A DNA stretch of 64,000 nucleotides from a virus (taxonomy: Duplodnaviria; Heunggongvirae; Uroviricota; Caudoviricetes), in IMG/VR virus record IMGVR_UViG_3300042339_000806. One strand, written 5' to 3'. Below, piece by piece: positions 6,477-61,767 of this stretch. The position numbers and the translations under genes are program-made. The notes beneath the pieces are model-generated. The model was not told where the DNA came from, did no database searches, and saw only the letters and a program-made list of their open reading frames with translations. The first letter of the stretch is position 1, and every line of letters starts with the position of its first letter.

Positions 6477-7367
6477 ATGTCTAAAAAACATGTTGTAGTA
6501 TCCTTAAGTGGAGGAATGGACTCAAGTACATTATTACTTAGATGTCTAAAAGAGTATGATAGTGTAACAGCTATCTCATTTGACTATGGTCAAAAACACA
6601 GAGTAGAGCTAGATAGAGCTCAATCATTGGTGAATTATATAAATTCAAACGATTCTATTGAAGCTAATGGAAGTAATTACATATTTTACCCAAAAGTAAA
6701 CTATCGCCAAATCAAACTAGACGGATTAGTTGACTTACTAGATTCAGCTTTAGTAACTGGAGGTGAAGATGTACCAGAAGGTCACTATGCAGAAGATAAT
6801 ATGAAAGCAACAGTTGTTCCTAACAGAAACAAAATATTTGCTTCTATTACTCAAGCAATAGCTTTATCAGTTGCTCAAAGAACAGGTGAATTTTGTAGTA
6901 TTGCTTTAGGTATTCACGCTGGAGATCATGCAATTTATCCTGATTGTAGACAAGAATTCCGTGATGCTGATGATTATGCATTTAGAATAGGAAATTGGGG
7001 AGCTGAAAATGTAGGGTATTTTACACCTTACTTGAAAGGAGATAAATTTACTATCTTACAAGACGGAGAAGTATTATGTGAAGAATTAGGATTAAATTTT
7101 GATGAAGTTTATAAAAGAACTAACACATCTTATAAACCAATTTGGATACCTGGACCTGAAAGTAACTCAAGAGTAGAAGAAACACTTAGAACTAAATTTG
7201 GAGAATGGTACTCAGATTATAAATCAGCTTCATCAGTTGAAAGAGTAGAAGCATTTATTAAATTAGGAAGAAAAGATCCAGCTCCTTATGCAGACGAAAC
7301 AGGACCAGTAACATGGGAACATGTGGTAGCAGAGGTAACAAAAGTATTAGATAACCATAACAATTAA
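6477..7367 (+). CDS. queC: QueC-like 7-cyano-7-deazaguanine synthase (PP-loop ATPase), atypical C-terminus
   Basis: N-terminus VVVSLSGGMDSSTLL...YDSVTAISFDYGQKHRVELDRA matches QueC SGGxDS PP-loop and DYGQRH. The YPDCRQEF motif is present. The canonical C-terminal Cys4 zinc cluster is not seen; it is replaced by a ~90 aa Cys-poor extension. Confidence 0.65.
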   Translation: MSKKHVVVSLSGGMDSSTLLLRCLKEYDSVTAISFDYGQKHRVELDRAQSLVNYINSNDSIEANGSNYIFYPKVNYRQIKLDGLVDLLDSALVTGGEDVPEGHYAEDNMKATVVPNRNKIFASITQAIALSVAQRTGEFCSIALGIHAGDHAIYPDCRQEFRDADDYAFRIGNWGAENVGYFTPYLKGDKFTILQDGEVLCEELGLNFDEVYKRTNTSYKPIWIPGPESNSRVEETLRTKFGEWYSDYKSASSVERVEAFIKLGRKDPAPYADETGPVTWEHVVAEVTKVLDNHNN

Positions 7368-10756: not shown

Positions 10757-10761
10757 CAAAG

Positions 10762-10844
10762 GGAAAGTAAATCAACTAGGAGTTGAGACCGCTTGCTAAG
10801 CGTATCGTGCCTTCGGGCATGGGGTTCGATACCTCTGCTTTCCT
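10762..10844 (+). tRNA. class II tRNA, anticodon ambiguous (possibly GCT, Ser)
   Basis: Acceptor ggaaagt/gctttcc, variable-arm hairpin gtgcc-ttcg-ggcat, T-loop TTCGATA. The anticodon region cgcttgctaagcg folds ambiguously. Confidence 0.4.
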
Positions 10845-11161
10845 CAAAAAAACCTCCTCACCGTCCTCACAACGCATCTAAGGAATGCAGGAGAAGGAAG
10901 TACGAACGGGGCCCCGTGGTAAGACACATTAAAATCAGATAGTACAGCGATAGGGTAAGAGGTTCCCTATCAACTACCGACTTGATCTAGGATCGAGAAT
11001 ATCTCATAAGTATTCTCAGACAAGAGCGTAACTTGTAGTCGGTACTAAATTATATGGGTAGGTAGGAAGTTAAGAAACGTTTCTCAAAAAACGACTTAAT
11101 GAGGTAAAGCGTTAGAGTAGTAAAATTGAGTAAGCGTTATTAAAGTAGTATAATTTTATAT

Positions 11162-11233
11162 GGTGTTCGAAGCTTTTTAGTGAAGCGCAAGACTGTGAAT
11201 CTTGAGAAGACGGGGCGGTACCGTCCTTACACC
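11162..11233 (+). tRNA. tRNA-His-like (anticodon GTG), atypical T-loop and acceptor
   Basis: Anticodon arm caaga-CTGTGAA-tcttg perfect, with anticodon at the expected position 34-36. T-arm gacgg-ggcggta-ccgtc has a non-canonical loop. Acceptor pairing is imperfect. Confidence 0.3.
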
Positions 11234-26413: not shown

Positions 26414-26875
26414 ATGAAATTTCAAGCAACAAAACTATTTGACGGCTACTCAGCATGCTTTCGACAATGGAAAGCAGAGGGTACACATTGCAGATTTCTT
26501 CACGGCTATGCCGTATCATTCCGAGTATGGTTCGAAGGAGAACTAGACGAAAGAAACTGGGTATGGGACTTCGGAGGAATGAAAAGAGCTAAAGGAAACA
26601 TCGAAGGATATTCTCCAAAAGCATTTTTCGATTACCTATTAGATCATACAACTATTGTAGCAGAGGATGATCCTTATATGGATACATTTAAACAAATGCA
26701 TAACGACGGCGTTATACAGTTAAGAATACTTCCTGCTACAGGATGTGAACGATTTGCAGAATACTTACATTTAAAAATCAATACATTTTTACTTGAAGAA
26801 ACAAACAGTAGAGTAAGAGCTACTAAGGTAGAAGTTTACGAACATGAAAGGAACTCAGCATCTTATGGTGAGTAA
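26414..26875 (+). CDS. queD: QueD-like 6-carboxy-5,6,7,8-tetrahydropterin synthase (PTPS fold), divergent metal ligands
   Basis: GTHCRFLHGYAVSFRVWFEGE aligns with QueD CGRLHGHSFMVRLEITGE. The HGH is HGY here and the upstream His is Cys. Confidence 0.55.
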   Translation: MKFQATKLFDGYSACFRQWKAEGTHCRFLHGYAVSFRVWFEGELDERNWVWDFGGMKRAKGNIEGYSPKAFFDYLLDHTTIVAEDDPYMDTFKQMHNDGVIQLRILPATGCERFAEYLHLKINTFLLEETNSRVRATKVEVYEHERNSASYGE

Positions 26876-27188: not shown

Positions 27189-27962
27189 ATGAAAAGAATA
27201 GAAGATTATAACAAAACACTTCCCATTGTAGAGCTTTATACAGCAGTACAATCAGAAGGAAGTAGAGCAGGTTATCCAACCGTAGTAATCAGAACAACAG
27301 GCTGTACTCACAGATGTTGGTTTGGTGATGGTGGATGGTGCGATTCTTGGTACACAAGTATACATCCTGAAAAAGGACATATCAGTTTTCAAGATATTAT
27401 TAACATGTATGATGCCAATCCCCACATCACAGAGATGATGCTAACAGGAGGATCACCAACAATGCATCCAGCATTAGTAAACGAATTAACACATTTTGCA
27501 CATGAAAGAAATATTTTCATTACGATTGAGACCGAAGGAAGTCATTTTCTTGAGACAGATTACCCAATTAATCTATTATCAATCTCCCCTAAGTTCAGTA
27601 ATTCTGTCCCTAAGGTTGGCATTGCAACACCTCAAGGAGACATTACAGATGAGAAAATGATTAAACAGCATAACAAGCTAAGATTAAACTACGATGCAAT
27701 ATCCAAATCAATCTCTTATCATTCAGACTACCATTTAAAACCGGTATGGGATGGAGAGGATCAAGAAGCATTAAAAGAGATTATGAATTGTATTAAAATG
27801 CTAGACATACCAGAAGATAAAGTATGGTTCATGCCAGCAGGAGATTCAAGAGAAGCTTTATTCAAATCATATCCAAAAATGTTTGATTGGGTTAGAGATA
27901 ACGGTTATAGATTGACCTGGAGACCTCACATCATTGCATTTGAAGACCAAAGAGAAGTGTAA
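27189..27962 (+). CDS. queE: QueE-like radical-SAM 7-carboxy-7-deazaguanine synthase
   Basis: Cys triad in TTGCTHRCWFGDGGWCDSW (C-x3-C-x7-C variant of the radical SAM cluster). Size and context fit QueE. Confidence 0.55.
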   Translation: MKRIEDYNKTLPIVELYTAVQSEGSRAGYPTVVIRTTGCTHRCWFGDGGWCDSWYTSIHPEKGHISFQDIINMYDANPHITEMMLTGGSPTMHPALVNELTHFAHERNIFITIETEGSHFLETDYPINLLSISPKFSNSVPKVGIATPQGDITDEKMIKQHNKLRLNYDAISKSISYHSDYHLKPVWDGEDQEALKEIMNCIKMLDIPEDKVWFMPAGDSREALFKSYPKMFDWVRDNGYRLTWRPHIIAFEDQREV

Positions 27963-29516: not shown

Positions 29517-30224
29517 ATGTCAAATAAAAAATTTATCGACGGTACAGAATTAGTACAAGCCGGATTCGCTAATGGTATTTCCTCTCAATTGGCAAAAAAA
29601 CAACTAACAGAAGGTCCAGAAGCAAGATTAACTGAAGTAGAAAAGCAACACATCATTGAAGATGCAGCAGAAGCTTTCGGACAATTCCTTTCAGCTTTAG
29701 GATGTGATTGGCAGAATGATCCAAATTCATCTGATACTCCTAAAAGAGTTGCAAAAGCATACGTAAACGATTTATGGGCAGGTCGATTTGAACCACTAAC
29801 AAGAATTACAGCATTCCCTTCTGATGGTTATGATGGAATAGTACAAGAGAGTAATATACCAGTTACCTCAATGTGCTCACATCACCACCAAACAATTTCA
29901 GGAGAGGTAAGTATAGCTTATGTTCCTTCAGCAGATGGAAAGGTAGTTGGGCTTTCAAAATTAAATCGAATTGTAGAGCAGTTTGCTAGACGTGGAGCTA
30001 TTCAAGAGCAGTTAACAGTTGCAATTCATAATGCAGTAGATAAAATCTGTGAAGGTAATCTAGGAGTAGCAGTAGCAATTTCAGCAACACATAACTGTGT
30101 ATCGTGTAGAGGGATTAAACATCAGGGAGCTTCAATGCAAACAGCAAAGTTAACAGGGTGTTTCTTAGATGAAGCATCAGCAAGAGCAGAATTCTATACA
30201 AATATTAAACTTGGAAAAAAATAA
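29517..30224 (+). CDS. folE: GTP cyclohydrolase I
   Basis: CSHHHQTISGEV (CEHH-type zinc motif), QEQLTVAIHNA (QERLT), ~230 aa. Confidence 0.8.
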   Translation: MSNKKFIDGTELVQAGFANGISSQLAKKQLTEGPEARLTEVEKQHIIEDAAEAFGQFLSALGCDWQNDPNSSDTPKRVAKAYVNDLWAGRFEPLTRITAFPSDGYDGIVQESNIPVTSMCSHHHQTISGEVSIAYVPSADGKVVGLSKLNRIVEQFARRGAIQEQLTVAIHNAVDKICEGNLGVAVAISATHNCVSCRGIKHQGASMQTAKLTGCFLDEASARAEFYTNIKLGKK

Positions 30225-31002: not shown

Positions 31003-31205
31003 TGCAAGCAGCACTAGACCATTTAGAAAAGCATAAAGTGTTTATTGATACTTTAGGTATAGATATGATTCCTTTATCAGAGGCATATAAAGCAGTTGAG
31101 AAGTCTATCGATAGTCAACTGGCAGAAGTTATGGAAACATTACAAGCACAGTTAGGAGGATTAGTAGAAGATTTACAAGATATAACACCAGAAGATAATG
31201 ATTAA
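31002..31205 (+). CDS. hypothetical protein
   Basis: ORF only. Confidence 0.3.
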   Translation: MQAALDHLEKHKVFIDTLGIDMIPLSEAYKAVEKSIDSQLAEVMETLQAQLGGLVEDLQDITPEDND

Positions 31206-31992
31206 GATAGCACACGAATCACCGAAGAGTATCTTTAAAGAAGTACAGAAGTATACTGACTATGATTATGCATTAGTGCATTTATTTGAAGAAGATCCAG
31301 AATACTTAAAACAGTTTCAAGATGCTAAAGAAGCAGGTAGAGAAATTATTTTAGATAATTCTATCTTTGAATTAGAAGAAGCTTTTGATGCAGAGAAGTT
31401 TGCAGGCTGGGTATTAGAATTAAAGCCAGATTGGTATATAGTTCCGGATGCTTTAGAGGATGCAAAGAAGACTGTACAGCAAATGACAGAATGGAATAAC
31501 AAGTATAAAAATCTTCCAGGAAAGAAAATAGGAGTTGTTCAAGGAAAGACTTACAGTCAAATTAAGACTTGTTATGAGTATATGGATAAGATTGCAAATG
31601 TAGATATGATTGCAATTTCATTCGACTACTCGTACTATACAAATACTATTTCACATCCTAACAAGTATGTTAGTTGGATGCTAGGAAGGGTTAAGCTACT
31701 AGGAGATCTATTGAGAGACGGTGTTATAAACGAAGAGAAGAAGCATCACCTATTGGGATGTGGATTACCTCAAGAGTTTTCTTTCTACTCAGACTATAAA
31801 TGGATCTATTCTTTAGATACTTCTAATCCAGTTGTACATGGTATAAAAGGAGTTGAGTATAGAGCAGATGGATTATGGTCAAAAGAGTCTCAAAAGTTAT
31901 TTGAATTAATCAACTACGTACCGGAAGATACGAATATGATTCTTCAGAACATTCATAAATTCAGATGGTTTGCAAATGGACGCAAAGTATAA
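31198..31992 (+). CDS. tRNA-guanine-transglycosylase-family protein, DpdA-like 7-deazaguanine DNA transglycosylase candidate
   Basis: KKIGVVQGKTYSQIK resembles the TGT LFGIVQGG motif. HHLLGCGLPQEF resembles the TGT RYLMGVG(K/T)P motif. No Cys-x-Cys-x2-Cys zinc site is seen. Confidence 0.5.
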   Translation: MIKIAHESPKSIFKEVQKYTDYDYALVHLFEEDPEYLKQFQDAKEAGREIILDNSIFELEEAFDAEKFAGWVLELKPDWYIVPDALEDAKKTVQQMTEWNNKYKNLPGKKIGVVQGKTYSQIKTCYEYMDKIANVDMIAISFDYSYYTNTISHPNKYVSWMLGRVKLLGDLLRDGVINEEKKHHLLGCGLPQEFSFYSDYKWIYSLDTSNPVVHGIKGVEYRADGLWSKESQKLFELINYVPEDTNMILQNIHKFRWFANGRKV

Positions 31993-33206: not shown

Positions 33207-34133
33207 ATGACACAAGAATTAAATCAAGCAGAAGTTGTAAAGATTGCAGGAAAGCATCTAGGACAAGTAGGTGGAGCAGGATATAGCGATACTTACGATC
33301 CAAGTCTATTGGTAGAAATTCCACGTTACTTGAATAGAGAAGCGTATGGAATTGACGATAATAACCTTCCATTTGTTGGAGGAGATGTTTGGAATGCATA
33401 CGAAGTATCTGCAATCACTACAAAAGGATTACCAGTAGTAGGAATGTTAAAGATTTGGTATCCAGCCGATTCAAAACTTCACGTAGAGTCTAAATCAATT
33501 AAATTGTATTTGAATTCATTCAATATGACTCAATTGGGAGATACAGATCATGAATGTATTAAGTTACTAAAAGAAAGAGTAAAGAAAGACCTATCTGACT
33601 TACTACAGACAAAAGTACAGGTAGAGATGTTTACATCAGAGCATTCTCCAAGCTATGCCTTTAAAGGATATGCACCATTGGATGCTTTGGTTGACTTAAA
33701 CAAAATTGAATTTACTTCTTACCATTCAGACGCTACACAGTTACAGTCAGAAGAAGTATCTGAAGACTTTGAAATTGGAGAAATAAAAATACAGTCTAAT
33801 CTTTTAAGATCAAATTGTAGAGTAACAAACCAACCAGACTGGGGTGATGTATTTATTCATATTAAACCAACAGCAGGAGTTGTTCCTGATTTAGAATCAT
33901 TAGCAAAATATATTGTAAGTCACAGACAAGTAAGTCACTTCCACGAAGAGATTTGTGAAATGATCTACATGCACTTAAAAGAAGCTTACAATCCAGAAGA
34001 ATTAATGGTAGCTTGTCTTTATACTCGTAGAGGAGGATTGGATATTAATCCAATTAGAGCTTCCCATAAGAAATTAATCCCAGGATTCTTTACAGATATT
34101 ACTTGTAGAATGGCTAAAACATTACGTCAGTAA
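33207..34133 (+). CDS. queF: NADPH-dependent 7-cyano-7-deazaguanine reductase QueF (two-domain/type II)
   Basis: QueF motif ESKSIKLYLNSF (E(S/L)K(S/A)hK(L/Y)(Y/F/W)) and catalytic Cys in NCRVTNQPDWGDV (cf. CPVTGQPDW). Confidence 0.8.
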   Translation: MTQELNQAEVVKIAGKHLGQVGGAGYSDTYDPSLLVEIPRYLNREAYGIDDNNLPFVGGDVWNAYEVSAITTKGLPVVGMLKIWYPADSKLHVESKSIKLYLNSFNMTQLGDTDHECIKLLKERVKKDLSDLLQTKVQVEMFTSEHSPSYAFKGYAPLDALVDLNKIEFTSYHSDATQLQSEEVSEDFEIGEIKIQSNLLRSNCRVTNQPDWGDVFIHIKPTAGVVPDLESLAKYIVSHRQVSHFHEEICEMIYMHLKEAYNPEELMVACLYTRRGGLDINPIRASHKKLIPGFFTDITCRMAKTLRQ

Positions 34134-39287: not shown

Positions 39288-39455
39288 ATGAACAAGCAAG
39301 AATTATTCGAACAAATCGATGAATTGTATCAAAGTTTTGTAGCAAGCCATAACGGAACTACTAAAAAATCGCAAGCACAAGCAAGAAAGTCTATCGGAGA
39401 GGTTAAGAAATTAATCACAGATTATAGAAAAGCTTCAACAGCAGAGAGCAAGTAA
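39288..39455 (+). CDS. small ORF (55 aa) ending immediately before the conserved GC-rich element
   Basis: ATG 39288 to TAA 39453-39455. Below the ORF-track cutoff. Confidence 0.25.
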   Translation: MNKQELFEQIDELYQSFVASHNGTTKKSQAQARKSIGEVKKLITDYRKASTAESK

Positions 39456-39466
39456 GCAAGGACCGA

Positions 39467-39517
39467 GAGGGGAGGGGGCGTCAAAACCTCCTCACCGAAG
39501 GTGTCACGCGCAAATTT
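39467..39517. repeat. conserved GC-rich element copy A (GGGGAGGGGGCG...CACCGAAGGTGTCACGCGCAA)
   Basis: Near-identical to 61418-61465. Contains the hairpin cacc-gaa-ggtg. GC-rich island in an AT-rich genome. Confidence 0.5.
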
Positions 39518-39534
39518 AACAAATAAACAAACAT

Positions 39535-39900
39535 ATGACAATTTTAACATCAATTATTTTAGTGTTAGTTATAGTAGCAGGAACAGCATTCCTTGCATAC
39601 TATATGCAAAGAGGAACAAAGCCCTTAAAAGAATTTAAAATGGACTTTGACAACAACAAAGAAGCTCAAGAGTTAGTAGAGTTATCTAAAGAATTGTACA
39701 ATAAAGACTTACGTCCTATTGTAGCAAAGAAAGCACCTAAGAAAGACAAAGTAACAGAGCAGGTAGAGTCTATGAAAAAAGTAGTAGAAGCACACGATAC
39801 TTTGGTAGAAGAGATTAACAAAATATCTCCAGAAGTAACAGCAGTAGTAGAAGCAGCAAAGCCAAAGAAAAAAAGAAAGTACTACCCTAAGAAAAAATAA
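39535..39900 (+). CDS. membrane-anchored Lys-rich protein
   Basis: N-terminal TM followed by a basic K-rich tail. Confidence 0.35.
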   Translation: MTILTSIILVLVIVAGTAFLAYYMQRGTKPLKEFKMDFDNNKEAQELVELSKELYNKDLRPIVAKKAPKKDKVTEQVESMKKVVEAHDTLVEEINKISPEVTAVVEAAKPKKKRKYYPKKK

Positions 39901-40406: not shown

Positions 40407-40428
40407 GAGAGACTTTACTTAAACATCA

Positions 40429-40453
40429 AAGAGGCCTTGTGCCTCTTTTTTTT
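40429..40453 (+). terminator. rho-independent terminator
   Basis: aagaggc-cttgt-gcctctt hairpin followed by TTTTTTTT. Confidence 0.6.
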
Positions 40454-55739: not shown

Positions 55740-55778
55740 TTGCTAGAACGAATCTTTATTCTTATATTTAGGTATAAT
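55740..55778 (+). promoter_or_regulatory. promoter module TTGCTAG-N-TATATTTAGGTATAAT
   Basis: TTG 55740, TATATTTA 55763, 20-nt spacer. Confidence 0.5.
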
Positions 55779-60112: not shown

Positions 60113-60151
60113 TTGCCTCCTAAGAATATATTTCATATATTTAGGTATAAT
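60113..60151 (+). promoter_or_regulatory. promoter module
   Basis: TTG 60113, TATATTTAGGTATAAT from 60136, 20-nt spacer. Confidence 0.5.
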
Positions 60152-61297: not shown

Positions 61298-61417
61298 CTA
61301 GAGGATAAGAGCTATGACAGAAGAAGAATTACAAGTACTGCTTGATGAGGAAGAGACTTACATCAACGAATGGAGAGATAGTTTAACGCAAGAGCAGATT
61401 GATTCGATTTAAGAACG

Positions 61418-61491
61418 AAGGGGAGGGGGCGCAAGACTACTCACCGAAGGTGTCACGCGCAATTTCTCCCAACCCTCCAGGTTGTTGGAGG
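61418..61491. repeat. conserved GC-rich element copy B plus adjacent hairpin cctcca/tggagg
   Basis: GGGGAGGGGGCG...CTCACCGAAGGTGTCACGCGCAATTT is nearly identical to 39467-39517. Confidence 0.5.
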
Positions 61492-61512
61492 TAAAATCTA
61501 AATAAAAACTAT

Positions 61513-61767
61513 ATGAAAACAATTTACAAGTACGAATTAAGATCACAAGATGCTAGTATGAAGCTTCCAAAAGGGGCAGAGATACTTACAGTACAGATTC
61601 AAGATGGGAGACCAATGCTATGGGCTTTAGTAGATCCAGAGAATGTATTAGAGGATAGATTTATATCCACTGTTGGTACAGGATGGGAAGTGGAAGACAA
61701 TATGAAATACATTTGTACATACATGGAAGGATATTTTGTGTGGCATGTATTTGAAATGATACAATAG
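61513..61767 (+). CDS. hypothetical protein
   Basis: ORF only. Confidence 0.3.
   Translation: MKTIYKYELRSQDASMKLPKGAEILTVQIQDGRPMLWALVDPENVLEDRFISTVGTGWEVEDNMKYICTYMEGYFVWHVFEMIQ

Follow-up and report, generated by a model that had tools for sequence, protein, structure and literature searches.

What is a GC-rich sequence of about 50 nucleotides doing twice in an AT-rich phage genome, each time directly behind a very small open reading frame (ORF)? The question is raised by a stretch of viral DNA of 64,000 nucleotides, here called the window. A first-pass annotation had noticed the repeat and had named three candidate identities, namely a protein-binding DNA site, a cis-regulatory RNA, or a small mobile or homing-associated sequence.

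Covariance model R1, built from 40 relatives, finds exactly two copies of the element in the window when both strands are searched with the filters off. Copy 1 (39461-39517, plus strand) scores 60.3 bits (cmsearch, E=1.3e-11) and copy 2 (61412-61466, plus strand) scores 49.2 bits (E=3.5e-9), while the third-best match in the 64-kb window reaches only 6.7 bits. The 22-mer TCACCGAAGGTGTCACGCGCAA is identical at 39492-39513 and 61441-61462, with 0 such repeats expected from shuffles, and GGAGGGGGCG is found at 39471-39480 and 61422-61431. Both repeats are genuine copies of one conserved, GC-rich structured element of about 45-57 nt, and the exact 22-mer together with the model scores bears out the repeat pair as first reported. 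The annotation had allowed that the similarity might vanish on proper alignment, or that the motif might be absent from related genomes and lack covariation. The similarity survives alignment, the motif is plentiful in relatives, and covariation is present. The hairpin CACC-GAA-GGTG occurs in both copies, as described, and the window has 34.7% GC, in agreement with the figure of about 35% given for the genome. The value of about 70% GC for the element was too high, as the copies measure 58-60% (0.60 for copy 1). Single-sequence fold z-scores of the two copies are modest (-2.4 and -2.3). A third, partial match reported at 10850 is real as an exact repeat, since the 14-mer at 10850-10863 equals 39484-39497, but it is not a member of the element: no other element block accompanies it and the model does not match it (filters off, E up to 10). 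This 14-mer starts 6 nt after an unannotated tRNA-like sequence. The features of the two sites are as follows.

39288-39455, plus strand: gene upstream of copy 1, encoding a 55-aa Lys-rich Hc1 (histone H1-like) protein (ORF list, Pfam)
39461-39517, plus strand: element copy 1, full model match (cmsearch)
39467-39478, plus strand: purine tract GAGGGGAGGGGG of copy 1, candidate 5' strand of helix P1 (sequence reading)
39478-39481, plus strand: GCGU, 5' strand of helix P0 in copy 1 (RNAalifold consensus)
39487-39493, plus strand: pyrimidine tract CCUCCUC of copy 1, candidate 3' strand of P1 (sequence, MFE fold)
39493-39503, plus strand: hairpin P2 of copy 1, CACC-GAA-GGUG (covariation)
39505-39517, plus strand: 3' block of copy 1, CAC-GCGC-AAAUUU, with the 3' strand of P0 at 39508-39511 (alignments, RNAalifold)
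39535-39900, plus strand: gene downstream of copy 1, encoding a 121-aa predicted membrane protein (ORF list)
61314-61412, plus strand: gene upstream of copy 2, a 32-aa acidic ORF (MTEEELQ...QIDSI), kept in relatives
61412-61466, plus strand: element copy 2, full model match (cmsearch)
61420-61429, 61429-61432 with 61457-61460, and 61442-61452, plus strand: purine tract, P0 and P2 of copy 2
61466-61514, plus strand: cassette downstream of copy 2, a C-rich hairpin and UAAAAUCUAAAUAAAA, up to the next start codon at 61515

The 55-aa ORF of the annotation is genuine and Hc1-like, and it ends in a stop codon 5 nt ahead of the model match. The protein matches Pfam PF07432 (Hc1) at E=1.2e-4 and 22.3 bits, which is below the cut-off of 23.5, and PF07432 matches six of ten members of the Hc1-like protein family (best E=3.9e-9). 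The gene for the 121-aa protein starts 17 nt after the match of copy 1. This protein has no match in Pfam, PHROG or NCBIfam and is annotated as FliL-like in the cultured phage immuto. At site 2, the small upstream ORF does have 32 codons for amino acids, but its coordinates were one base off those given above; its family of upstream ORFs has 11 members. The reported absence of a T-run terminator holds for both copies: a terminator scan detected none at either, and they end in AAAUUU or AAUUUC.

Immuto is a cultured Flavobacterium phage with a complete genome of 160 kb. It carries exactly two copies, at the same two positions as in the window (74.5 and 30.2 bits with model R1), and the copies of both phages are all on the plus strand. 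In all, more than 100 AT-rich contigs of viral or metagenomic origin make up the family. A strict pattern is matched by about 43 related viral contigs, more members are recovered with relaxed patterns, and about 60 occurrences come from metagenomes; one looser viral scan yielded mostly GC-rich chance matches. The family, which consists of Flavobacterium-type phages, is plentiful in viromes from marine and brackish waters. No cultured phage besides immuto was found with the element. Bacterial species genomes gave GC-rich chance matches plus one 1.6-kb AT-rich phage-type contig binned into a metagenome-assembled genome. Judged from these matches, the element is common to a large lineage of AT-rich immuto-related phages, mostly uncultured and known from contig fragments. 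A known RNA family was rejected as its identity by Rfam searches. Rfam 15 (4227 models) detects only tRNAs in the whole window at the gathering threshold; in 39400-39600, at E up to 10, the sole match is an 11.7-bit minus-strand snoRNA, a chance hit; and the element is unmatched in nine divergent member loci (E up to 1) and in eleven further loci (gathering threshold). A search of a literature library for the conserved sequence blocks and for immuto returned nothing relevant. By these searches, the element family is previously uncatalogued and widely conserved.

From 5' to 3', the element consists of a G-rich purine tract, GCGY, 3-5 nt, usually a pyrimidine tract, the hairpin P2, (Y)CAC-GCGC, and an A/U-rich stretch. 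P2 is a hairpin of 3-6 bp topped by a near-invariant C-GAA-G. Its covariation score is 0.308 against 0.113 for shuffled alignments (none of 500 as high), and the signal collapses if the partners are slid. GC, AU, CG and UA pairs are all present, with one U.G among about 160 pairs. The closing C-G is kept in 39 of 40 sequences and the GAA loop in at least 90%, with the G and one A invariant. The stem sequence differs freely among close relatives (CACC, GACAAC, GACGAC, GCC, CGAC and others), and for this reason a double-stranded operator is disfavoured. The second helix, P0, which pairs GCGY with GCGC, was picked independently by the RNAalifold consensus. Its bases are almost invariant, so this candidate helix is beyond the reach of covariation. 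The fourth pair is solely U.G (26 of 39 sequences) or C-G (13 of 39). In a set gathered without reference to the element's sequence, 6 of 24 distinct sequences have a broken outer pair, and the CGCG of the 3' block is invariant even there. A short variant at site 2 keeps only P0 and the flanking blocks. The plus-strand fold is the more stable one in 74 of 81 unique members (mean -17.5 vs -12.5 kcal/mol). The sequence d(GCGAAGC) forms a very stable DNA mini-hairpin, and the C-GAA-G top equals it. With this top and with almost no G.U pairs, P2 alone fits single-stranded DNA as well as RNA.

The genomic context ties the element to the end of the gene in front of it. It is invariably in sense orientation, 0-21 nt past the upstream stop codon. 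Within the immuto clade this argument from orientation is weaker, because almost every gene of immuto is encoded on a single strand. In nearly every context the stop codon and GGGGCG are spaced by -10 to +21 nt; downstream, the distance can be as short as 14 nt or exceed 500 nt. The sequence that follows also varies and can be a start codon, a C-rich hairpin, a canonical terminator, or a long ORF-free region. In one clade, the element follows the Hc1 stop codon and is itself followed, after 10-14 nt, by a canonical intrinsic terminator. The element is thus inside the predicted transcription unit and would be transcribed there. In several relatives, the element and a terminator, sometimes two tandem terminators, end an operon that faces convergent genes, and in these members there is no downstream gene to regulate.

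On these grounds we tentatively favour, as a reading that falls somewhat short of probable, that the element is a protein-recognised RNA module setting the fate of the upstream transcript's 3' end. The sense-strand element would be read as RNA and would fold once the ribosome leaves the stop codon just upstream. The nucleotides that are invariant in its loop and single-stranded parts (GGCG, CGAAG, CGCGC) would then become accessible to a protein. As an outcome, 3'-to-5' decay may be blocked and/or a processed or terminated end may be defined, and the upstream message (GroES-GroEL-Hc1 at site 1) would thereby be uncoupled from the following genes. The prime candidate for the partner, at a guess whose sole basis is adjacency, is the small basic Hc1-like protein, which in most contexts is encoded directly upstream. 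Of the three identities first proposed, the cis-regulatory RNA fits best, with the covarying stem, the invariant loop, the sense position after a stop codon and the terminator clade in its favour. Several points count against it. Sequence conservation this strict would be unnecessary for a plain stabiliser, bacteria and phages rarely have autoregulatory operators in their 3'-UTRs, and there is no terminator after either window copy.

With the double-stranded operator disfavoured, the protein-binding DNA site is left as a single-stranded DNA hairpin. In this case, the plus strand, exposed in replication, in an R-loop or in recombination, would form a C-GAA-G mini-hairpin, with the conserved GC blocks on either side, to be recognised by a DNA enzyme, such as a primase or helicase loader, an HUH or tyrosine-type nuclease, or a homing endonuclease. 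The element would then serve in the priming of replication or in recombination, or be a portable hairpin of the REP type. The nearly all Watson-Crick pairs of P2 and its top are consistent with such a signal, as is the purine/pyrimidine helix discussed below, which is RNA-specific and has no statistical support. The genomic surroundings also suit it: the element follows about 15 or more unrelated genes in addition to Hc1, and site 2 is a mosaic junction carrying the element, where the downstream cassette is kept ahead of at least four unrelated genes in relatives. The hairpin of this cassette spans 61474-61491 in the MFE fold, and a longer alternative, CUCCCAACC..GGUUGUUGGAG, can be drawn. In the relative L091, an HNH endonuclease gene abuts the element, and in one group the element opens an ORF-free region of 450-650 nt with iteron-like CTAAAG repeats, resembling an origin or control region. 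However, the fourth P0 pair, U.G in two thirds of members, would become a T.G mismatch if the 4-bp stem were DNA, and the plus-strand RNA fold is better than the minus-strand one by about 5 kcal/mol. The coupling to stop codons and the fixed spacing of 10-14 nt to the terminator in one clade are features of a transcript. Moreover, each genome has just two copies, both at conserved positions, and neither a transposase nor target duplications were seen. We therefore regard a single-stranded DNA signal as rather unlikely. The mobile or homing-associated sequence of the annotation has circumstantial support from the same unrelated genes, mosaic junction and HNH neighbour, against which stand the two copies at conserved positions.

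A further helix could be formed by the purine tract. In the MFE fold of copy 1, 39472-39478 is paired with 39487-39493, and a pyrimidine tract is found at the corresponding place in nearly all family members. Copy 2 has no internal pyrimidine tract; in its MFE fold the purine tract (61421-61428) pairs with UUUCUCCC (61463-61470), which is 3' of P0, giving a nested stem. Purine/pyrimidine pairing is plausible, and the potential for it is family-wide, with 26% G.U among the predicted pairs. Three tests of this helix revealed no specific covariation: permutations were at least as good in 876 of 2000 cases with chimeric folding, in 1029 of 5000 with double-centred energies, and in 797 of 5000 with an anchored helix score (p about 0.16-0.44 for the chimera and double-centred tests). 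Pairing of the purine tract with the internal pyrimidine tract, combined with P0, would yield an H-type pseudoknot whose third loop contains P2. As the helix has no specific covariation, this pseudoknot and much of the strand argument likewise lack such support. Alternatively, a CUCCC tract located 3' of P0 can serve as the partner of the purine tract, as predicted for copy 2.

Such a fold raises the possibility that the element is a functional RNA of a new class, either a small ribozyme that cleaves itself or a riboswitch pseudoknot that senses a ligand, in which variable helices hold a conserved core of GGCG, CGAAG and CGCGC. It would sit at two checkpoints of the genome, before a lysis-type cassette and before a small-gene array. 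Invariant junction and loop nucleotides with covarying or variable helices are typical of these RNAs, and the candidate pseudoknot with its embedded hairpin resembles preQ1-I and preQ1-II. The riboswitch version might sense a 7-deazaguanine intermediate, e.g., preQ1 or preQ0, made by these phages. Immuto and the window, the only phages with enough sequence, both encode GroES/GroEL and a 7-deazaguanine DNA-modification pathway (QueC, QueD, QueE, QueF, FolE and DpdA), and QueF and DpdA are also encoded at the distant element-bearing loci L178 and L308. The terminator at fixed spacing in one clade, and the ability of the purine tract to pair with downstream C-rich arms instead, would also suit a switch. 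Even so, we consider this class improbable. Rfam contains no riboswitch or ribozyme matching the element even at E up to 10, the flanking genes are heterogeneous, and the que genes are not adjacent but 5-33 kb upstream. The element is tied to the end of the upstream gene and not to the start of the downstream one, the pseudoknot is unproven, and inspection revealed no consistent complementarity between the pyrimidine tract and the terminator arms.

Another way in which nascent RNA could act is processive antitermination of the lambda nut or HK022 put type, where the hairpins, with or without a phage protein, would load onto RNA polymerase and carry it past terminators further downstream. This would time the lysis-type genes after site 1 and the small-gene array after site 2. 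Two copies per genome, the sense position directly after the stop codon of a small gene (as with nutR after cro), and a variable-stem hairpin with an invariant purine-rich loop and conserved linear blocks are what such a site would look like. Terminators or C-rich, G-poor tracts follow in many relatives, and the window has a terminator-like site at 40428-40448, about 900 nt past copy 1. On the other hand, where the element and terminator face convergent genes, as in several relatives, read-through would be antisense and pointless, and a terminator merely 10-14 nt away leaves scant room to modify the polymerase. No boxA-like sequence and no N-like or Q-like protein were identified, and we know of no nut/put-type system in Bacteroidota. 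We give this mechanism little credence.

The most frequent neighbour of the element is the Hc1-like gene, found upstream in 55 of 102 contexts (54%). Among the 80 closest Hc1-like viral loci, 35 carry the element right after the gene (35-75 bits with model R1) and 45 do not, and the association holds across Hc1 proteins that are only 51-58% identical. At the equivalent 3'-UTR position, other Hc1-like genes have a conserved hairpin of another kind, whose loop is invariant. The element might accordingly be read as an RNA decoy or operator for the Hc1-like protein, which would titrate a potentially toxic DNA-condensing protein or let that protein feed back on its own message and on a small number of others. 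In Chlamydia, Hc1 binds both RNA and DNA, and a small RNA controls it. The frequency and persistence of the association argue for this view, together with the equivalent placement of the second, unrelated hairpin. The Hc1-like loci that lack the element and the many other genes that precede it argue for the contrary, and one RNA copy per message cannot titrate a protein that is translated many times. Overall, the decoy or operator reading seems improbable.

Several other identities were considered and rejected. Twister, pistol, hatchet and HDV-like ribozymes were suggested by GGAGGGGGCG-like strings and the nested-helix layout, but no model matches; for HDV, the purine and pyrimidine tracts are separated by too short a loop to house P2/P3, and for twister, the remaining parts are missing from the variable flanks. 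The preQ1 riboswitch classes I-III also have no model match, and the element is not in the 5' leader of que or transporter genes. A stimulator of stop-codon read-through or frameshifting is rejected by the frame after the stop codon, which is unconserved and is not that of the downstream gene. A promoter on either strand does not agree with a GC-block spacing of 10-36 nt or with the terminator 10-14 nt later in one clade, and a minus-strand TAnnTTTG-like box is present in some variants only. The element itself is not an intrinsic (Rho-independent) terminator, since its hairpin has no U-run within 0-2 nt and relatives have a separate terminator 10-14 nt later; the minus strand also has no U-run. 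The G-runs are interrupted in relatives (GGUGAGGUGG), which speaks against a G-quadruplex or H-DNA. Unrelated flanks, the lack of arrays and variable lengths exclude a DGR template/variable repeat pair, a CRISPR repeat mimic, a tRNA fragment and attP. For a translation-coupled attenuator, about 10 loci were inspected for complementarity between the pyrimidine tract and the terminator 3' arm; it was not consistent, and other terminators of these phages have similar C-first arms. A REP/BIME-like mobile palindrome is rejected by the numbers, two copies in 64 kb and two in the 160 kb of immuto, on the plus strand only. The immuto annotation lists no transposase and no N4-type polymerase.

Should the element prove to be an RNA signal, Bacteroidota phages would gain their first described example of a conserved cis-acting structured RNA. 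Gene expression in Bacteroidota departs from that of E. coli in its unusual promoters, in its atypical Rho and in doing without Shine-Dalgarno sequences. To our knowledge, almost nothing is known about post-transcriptional control during infection by Bacteroidota phages. Since the family is abundant and one member, phage immuto, is in culture on Flavobacterium sp. LMO8, the question can be put directly to the test. An unexplored protein-RNA pair is suggested by the link to Hc1 and by the second hairpin after other Hc1-like genes. Furthermore, the covariance model can serve as a marker for this phage lineage and as a candidate entry for an RNA family database.

Known systems resemble the element in part. 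Lambda nutL/nutR (boxA and boxB) and HK022 putL/putR also occur as two copies per phage genome and act as sense RNA, as the element would. They likewise combine a free-stem hairpin and a conserved purine-rich loop with conserved linear sequence, and put consists of two adjacent hairpins. NutR is placed similarly, between the end of the small cro gene, whose stop codon it directly follows, and a terminator. The element differs from both in lacking sequence or model similarity and an identified N-like partner, in its block order, and in that some members close operons facing convergent genes. A boxA consensus (CGCUCUUUA-like) 5' of the hairpin is missing from the alignments, in which the conserved blocks are GGGGCG and CACGCGC. 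The covarying stem and near-invariant C-GAA-G top of P2 would suit a boxB-type hairpin, with its conserved purine-rich loop on a stem of free sequence; the loop of P2 is a triloop, and that of boxB a GNRA-like pentaloop.

REP/BIME sequences of enterobacteria and other intercistronic mRNA stabilisers are also GC-rich hairpins in AT-richer surroundings after many unrelated genes. They protect the upstream message from 3' exonucleases, as is proposed for the element. Like the element, REP/BIME sequences are extragenic, typically within about 20 nt of the upstream stop codon. Unlike the element, they are present in hundreds of copies rather than two, and the element is strictly in one orientation, with an invariant loop and flanking blocks but no RAYT transposase or GTAG-type motif.

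The candidate fold is similar to preQ1-I and preQ1-II, which are small H-type pseudoknots with a purine-rich 5' strand, a pyrimidine-rich 3' strand and a loop that pairs with the 3' tail; in preQ1-II, a hairpin is also embedded in the last loop. The phage makes 7-deazaguanine precursors, but there is no covariance-model match to these riboswitches, the element is not upstream of que or transporter genes, and its first helix is unproven. The d(GCGAAGC) mini-hairpins of single-strand origins and the N4 hairpin promoters share a short C-G-closed stem of free sequence and a conserved, purine-rich GAA triloop. They act in single-stranded DNA, whereas the P0 wobble and the position between stop codon and terminator point to RNA for the element.

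Finally, site 2 can be compared with the PeSL (promoter-early stem-loop) cassettes of T4-type phages. No promoter consensus was recognised in the site-2 cassette, and there is one element-bearing junction per genome rather than dozens. Nevertheless, the shuffling junctions of T4-type hyperplastic regions resemble site 2, where an intergenic stem-loop cassette precedes different small genes in close relatives.

Two copies of a GC-rich structured repeat of about 45-57 nt are found in the window, at 39461-39517 (copy 1) and 61412-61466 (copy 2). The first-pass annotation had placed a conserved element twice at these positions, and this is borne out: both copies contain the exact 22-mer TCACCGAAGGTGTCACGCGCAA (39492-39513 and 61441-61462) and GGAGGGGGCG (39471-39480 and 61422-61431). 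The 22-mer has no other site in the window at up to three mismatches, and shuffles give an expectation of 0 occurrences. A covariance model likewise finds exactly two matches in the window (60.3 and 49.2 bits; runner-up 6.7 bits). The G+C content is 58-60%, against 34.7% in the window, and thus falls short of the roughly 70% claimed before. As described, copy 1 follows a small ORF of 55 aa (39288-39455); the 32-aa ORF before copy 2 is also present, with its coordinates corrected by one base to 61314-61412. No T-run terminator was found after either copy, in agreement with the annotation. A third, partial match had been proposed at 10850. The segment 10850-10863 is an exact 14-nt repeat of 39484-39497, an identity not expected by chance, but it lacks the other blocks and is missed by the covariance model. 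This 14-mer, AAACCTCCTCACCG, corresponds to the pyrimidine tract and the 5' half of the P2 hairpin of copy 1 and begins 6 nt 3' of the first of two tRNA-like sequences that ARAGORN left uncalled in the tRNA cluster.

tRNA-like sequences in the tRNA cluster of the window
10761-10844 (+), Ser-GCU-like, with a long variable arm and the anticodon loop CUUGCUAA; its only match is the Rfam tRNA-Sec model (30.5 bits, below threshold)
11163-11233 (+), His-like, with a GUG anticodon; tRNA model 30.5 bits, slightly over the gathering score of 29

Searching for GGAGGGGGCG-N(5-35)-CACGCGCAA retrieved 50 viral loci, comprising about 43 AT-rich relatives and 7 GC-rich chance matches. With looser patterns, further, more divergent viral members came to light, along with about 60 occurrences in metagenomes. 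When bacteria and archaea were scanned at one genome per species, the only matches were GC-rich and due to chance, apart from a 1.6-kb AT-rich contig of phage type that had been assigned to a metagenome-assembled genome. A second sample was gathered through the upstream protein, without use of the element sequence; among the 80 closest viral loci encoding this protein, the element lies directly 3' of the gene in 35, always on the gene's own strand. The element is real, conserved and abundant among uncultured Flavobacteriia-type phages. Rfam 15 holds no match to it, even at permissive thresholds, and a full-text literature search for its conserved blocks found nothing relevant.

The only cultured relative is Flavobacterium phage vB_FspM_immuto (MW353175, whole genome; loci L415-L418), a 160-kb myovirus from the Baltic Sea that is about 81-85% identical to the flanks of the element in the window. 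Immuto carries the element at the same two places, and the covariance model gives exactly two matches in its complete genome (42438-42494 and 64747-64794). At site 1, the element lies between a 57-aa ORF, itself located after GroES-GroEL, and a small membrane protein. At site 2, a shorter form precedes gene 117; about 3 kb upstream of this site are genes for a DksA-like protein and an HNH endonuclease. Since the 239 annotated genes share one strand with only a few exceptions, arguments from orientation are weak within the immuto clade.

The anatomy of the element was read from an alignment of 40 diverse members.

Blocks of the element, 5' to 3'
Block 1: purine tract with terminal GGGG
Block 2: GCG-Y
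Block 3: 3-5 variable bases
Block 4: pyrimidine tract, CYCUCUC-like
Block 5: P2 hairpin of 3-6 bp, with a near-invariant closing C-G and GAA loop
Block 6: (Y)CAC-GCGC
Block 7: A/U-rich tail

The fold is partly established. The first-pass annotation had suggested a search for further copies and covariation; viral and metagenome members are many, and P2 covaries, scoring 0.308 versus 0.113 in shuffled alignments (0/500 as high) and at most 0.087 with slid partners. Its stems include CACC/GGUG, GACC/GGUC, GCC/GGC, CGAC/GUCG, GCAC/GUGC, CCCC/GGGG, GACAAC/GUUGUC, GACGAC/GUCGUC and UGGC-UUU-GCCA, and P2 is well supported. The RNAalifold consensus independently pairs GCGY with GCGC (P0). Three P0 pairs are invariant; at the fourth, 26 sequences have U.G and 13 have C-G. 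In the motif-independent sample, CGCG is invariant, but 6 of 24 distinct sequences lack an intact outermost pair. P0 is plausible, and because its pairs hardly vary it lies beyond covariation testing. At site 2 of immuto and two other lineages, a short variant is reduced to the G-run, P0 and the tail, with AUCUGA in the loop. In minimum-energy folds of nearly every member, 6-13 bp can form between the purine and pyrimidine tracts (P1); in copy 2, where an internal pyrimidine tract is missing, the purine tract is predicted to pair instead with UUUCUCCC, 3' of P0. G.U pairs make up 172 of 659 predicted P1 pairs, and owing to P1 the plus strand is the better-folding of the two strands in 74 of 81 members. 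Three tests for a better mutual fit of a member's own P1 strands than with those of other members were all negative. Purine and pyrimidine runs have such pairing potential in general, and P1 is therefore an unproven, candidate helix. Together, P1 and P0 would form an H-type pseudoknot whose third loop contains P2.

This candidate fold resembles preQ1 topology, and these phages encode QueC, QueD, QueE, QueF, FolE and DpdA. The conservation pattern would also suit a new riboswitch or ribozyme. The varied gene contexts and the lack of a match to any known model speak against this reading, which is improbable. The 7-deazaguanine DNA-modification set is complete in the window (6477-34130) and is followed by genes for a family A DNA polymerase, GroES, GroEL and an Hc1-like (histone H1-like) protein.

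7-Deazaguanine gene set in the window
6477-7364, QueC
26414-26872, QueD
27189-27959, QueE
29517-30209, FolE
31198-31989, DpdA
33216-34130, QueF

The upstream neighbour is on the same strand as the element in all contexts, and the distance from its stop codon to GGGGCG is, with few exceptions, -10 to +21 nt; in one clade, the UAG stop falls within the purine tract. The upstream ORFs form 23 clusters, about 15 of which resemble real genes. More than half (55/102) belong to one family of Lys-rich proteins of about 55 aa, which matches Pfam Hc1 in 6 of 10 members (best E=3.9e-9); the window's own protein scores 22.3 bits, slightly under the 23.5-bit cut-off. In locus L091 (~1760-2322), an HNH endonuclease ORF ends 1 nt 5' of the element, and its closest relative, L007, has an Hc1-like gene in that place. 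A different conserved hairpin occurs in the 3' UTR of other Hc1-like genes, 10-35 nt past the stop codon (L376, L383, L388, L401, L404, L412). It has a covarying 5-6-bp stem (GACUG/CAGUC, GCUAG/CUAGC, GCUCG/CGAGC, GGUGG/CCACC) and an invariant AUUCAUA(G/U)C loop followed by GAU, with a canonical terminator about 25 nt beyond.

The downstream side is heterogeneous. A start codon may follow after 14-25 nt (window copy 1), or a C-rich hairpin without a U-run (copy 2 and immuto site 1). In 19 of 109 distinct contexts, a canonical intrinsic terminator follows at a near-constant 10-14 nt, and in several cases element and terminator stand at convergent operon ends. The site 2 cassette (element, its hairpin and UAAAAUCUAAAUAAAA) is conserved as a unit; the genes 3' of it are of at least four unrelated kinds, and the ORFs 5' of it of at least three. 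A nut- or put-like antitermination site would account for the two copies, their position behind a small gene and the type of hairpin, yet it does not fit convergent operon ends and has little probability. Candidate phage promoters of the type TTGCTA-N17-TATATT recur in the small-gene region at 55740, 56965, 57913 and 61061 (+), with a TTGCCT variant at 60113; one of them stands about 250 nt 5' of the small ORF that precedes copy 2. CTTATATTAA comes directly after several of the window's terminator-like hairpins.

In the remaining type, the element opens 450-650 nt without ORFs (metagenome relatives L242, L224, L311, L281, L217, L086, L140, L313, L218, L329, L307, L310, L333, L330). This region contains a loop poor in G and rich in C/U, closed by GUCCU..AGGAC with GUCCA..UGGAC as a covarying alternative; the hairpin NGCUAAAGCN; UCUGAGGUAGU..GACUUUGG; iteron-like CTAAAG(A/G) repeats; CAGGCAUGCACCCCUC followed by a U-run; and TTCGTATATT..AAAGGTTATG ahead of the next gene. 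It is absent from the window, gave no Rfam or tRNA matches, and may represent a large non-coding RNA, an origin or a control region.

The element borders this iteron-bearing region, lies at mosaic junctions and adjoins an HNH gene in one relative, as a single-stranded DNA hairpin signal might. P2 pairs are almost purely Watson-Crick, the C-GAA-G top matches the classic stable DNA mini-hairpin, and P1, the RNA-specific helix, is unproven. The transcript-level context speaks against this, as does the U.G pair of P0, and we consider a DNA signal unlikely.

The covarying P2 with its invariant loop, the strict sense orientation and the upstream-stop anchor argue for a function at the transcript level, tied to the end of the upstream gene and not to the start of the next. 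The placement between stop codon and terminator in one clade also fits, as does the occurrence at operon ends, where nothing downstream is left to control. Strict conservation of GGCG, CGAAG and CGCGC, which thermodynamic stability alone would not demand, points to specific recognition, for which a protein is the simplest candidate. Our preferred reading, tentative and held as possible rather than probable, is that a protein recognises the element as an RNA module, in the 3' UTR or between cistrons, that would fix the fate of the upstream message 3' end. The module may act through the stability, processing or termination efficiency of that message. The Hc1-like protein would be the prime candidate partner of the RNA because of its adjacency and of the different conserved hairpin at the same place after other Hc1-like genes. 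That the element serves as an Hc1 decoy or operator, a special case of this protein-recognised RNA module, has only a slim chance. The element is open to direct testing in immuto and Flavobacterium sp. LMO8. It forms a new family among the phage cis-acting structured nucleic-acid signals, which are a known general kind.
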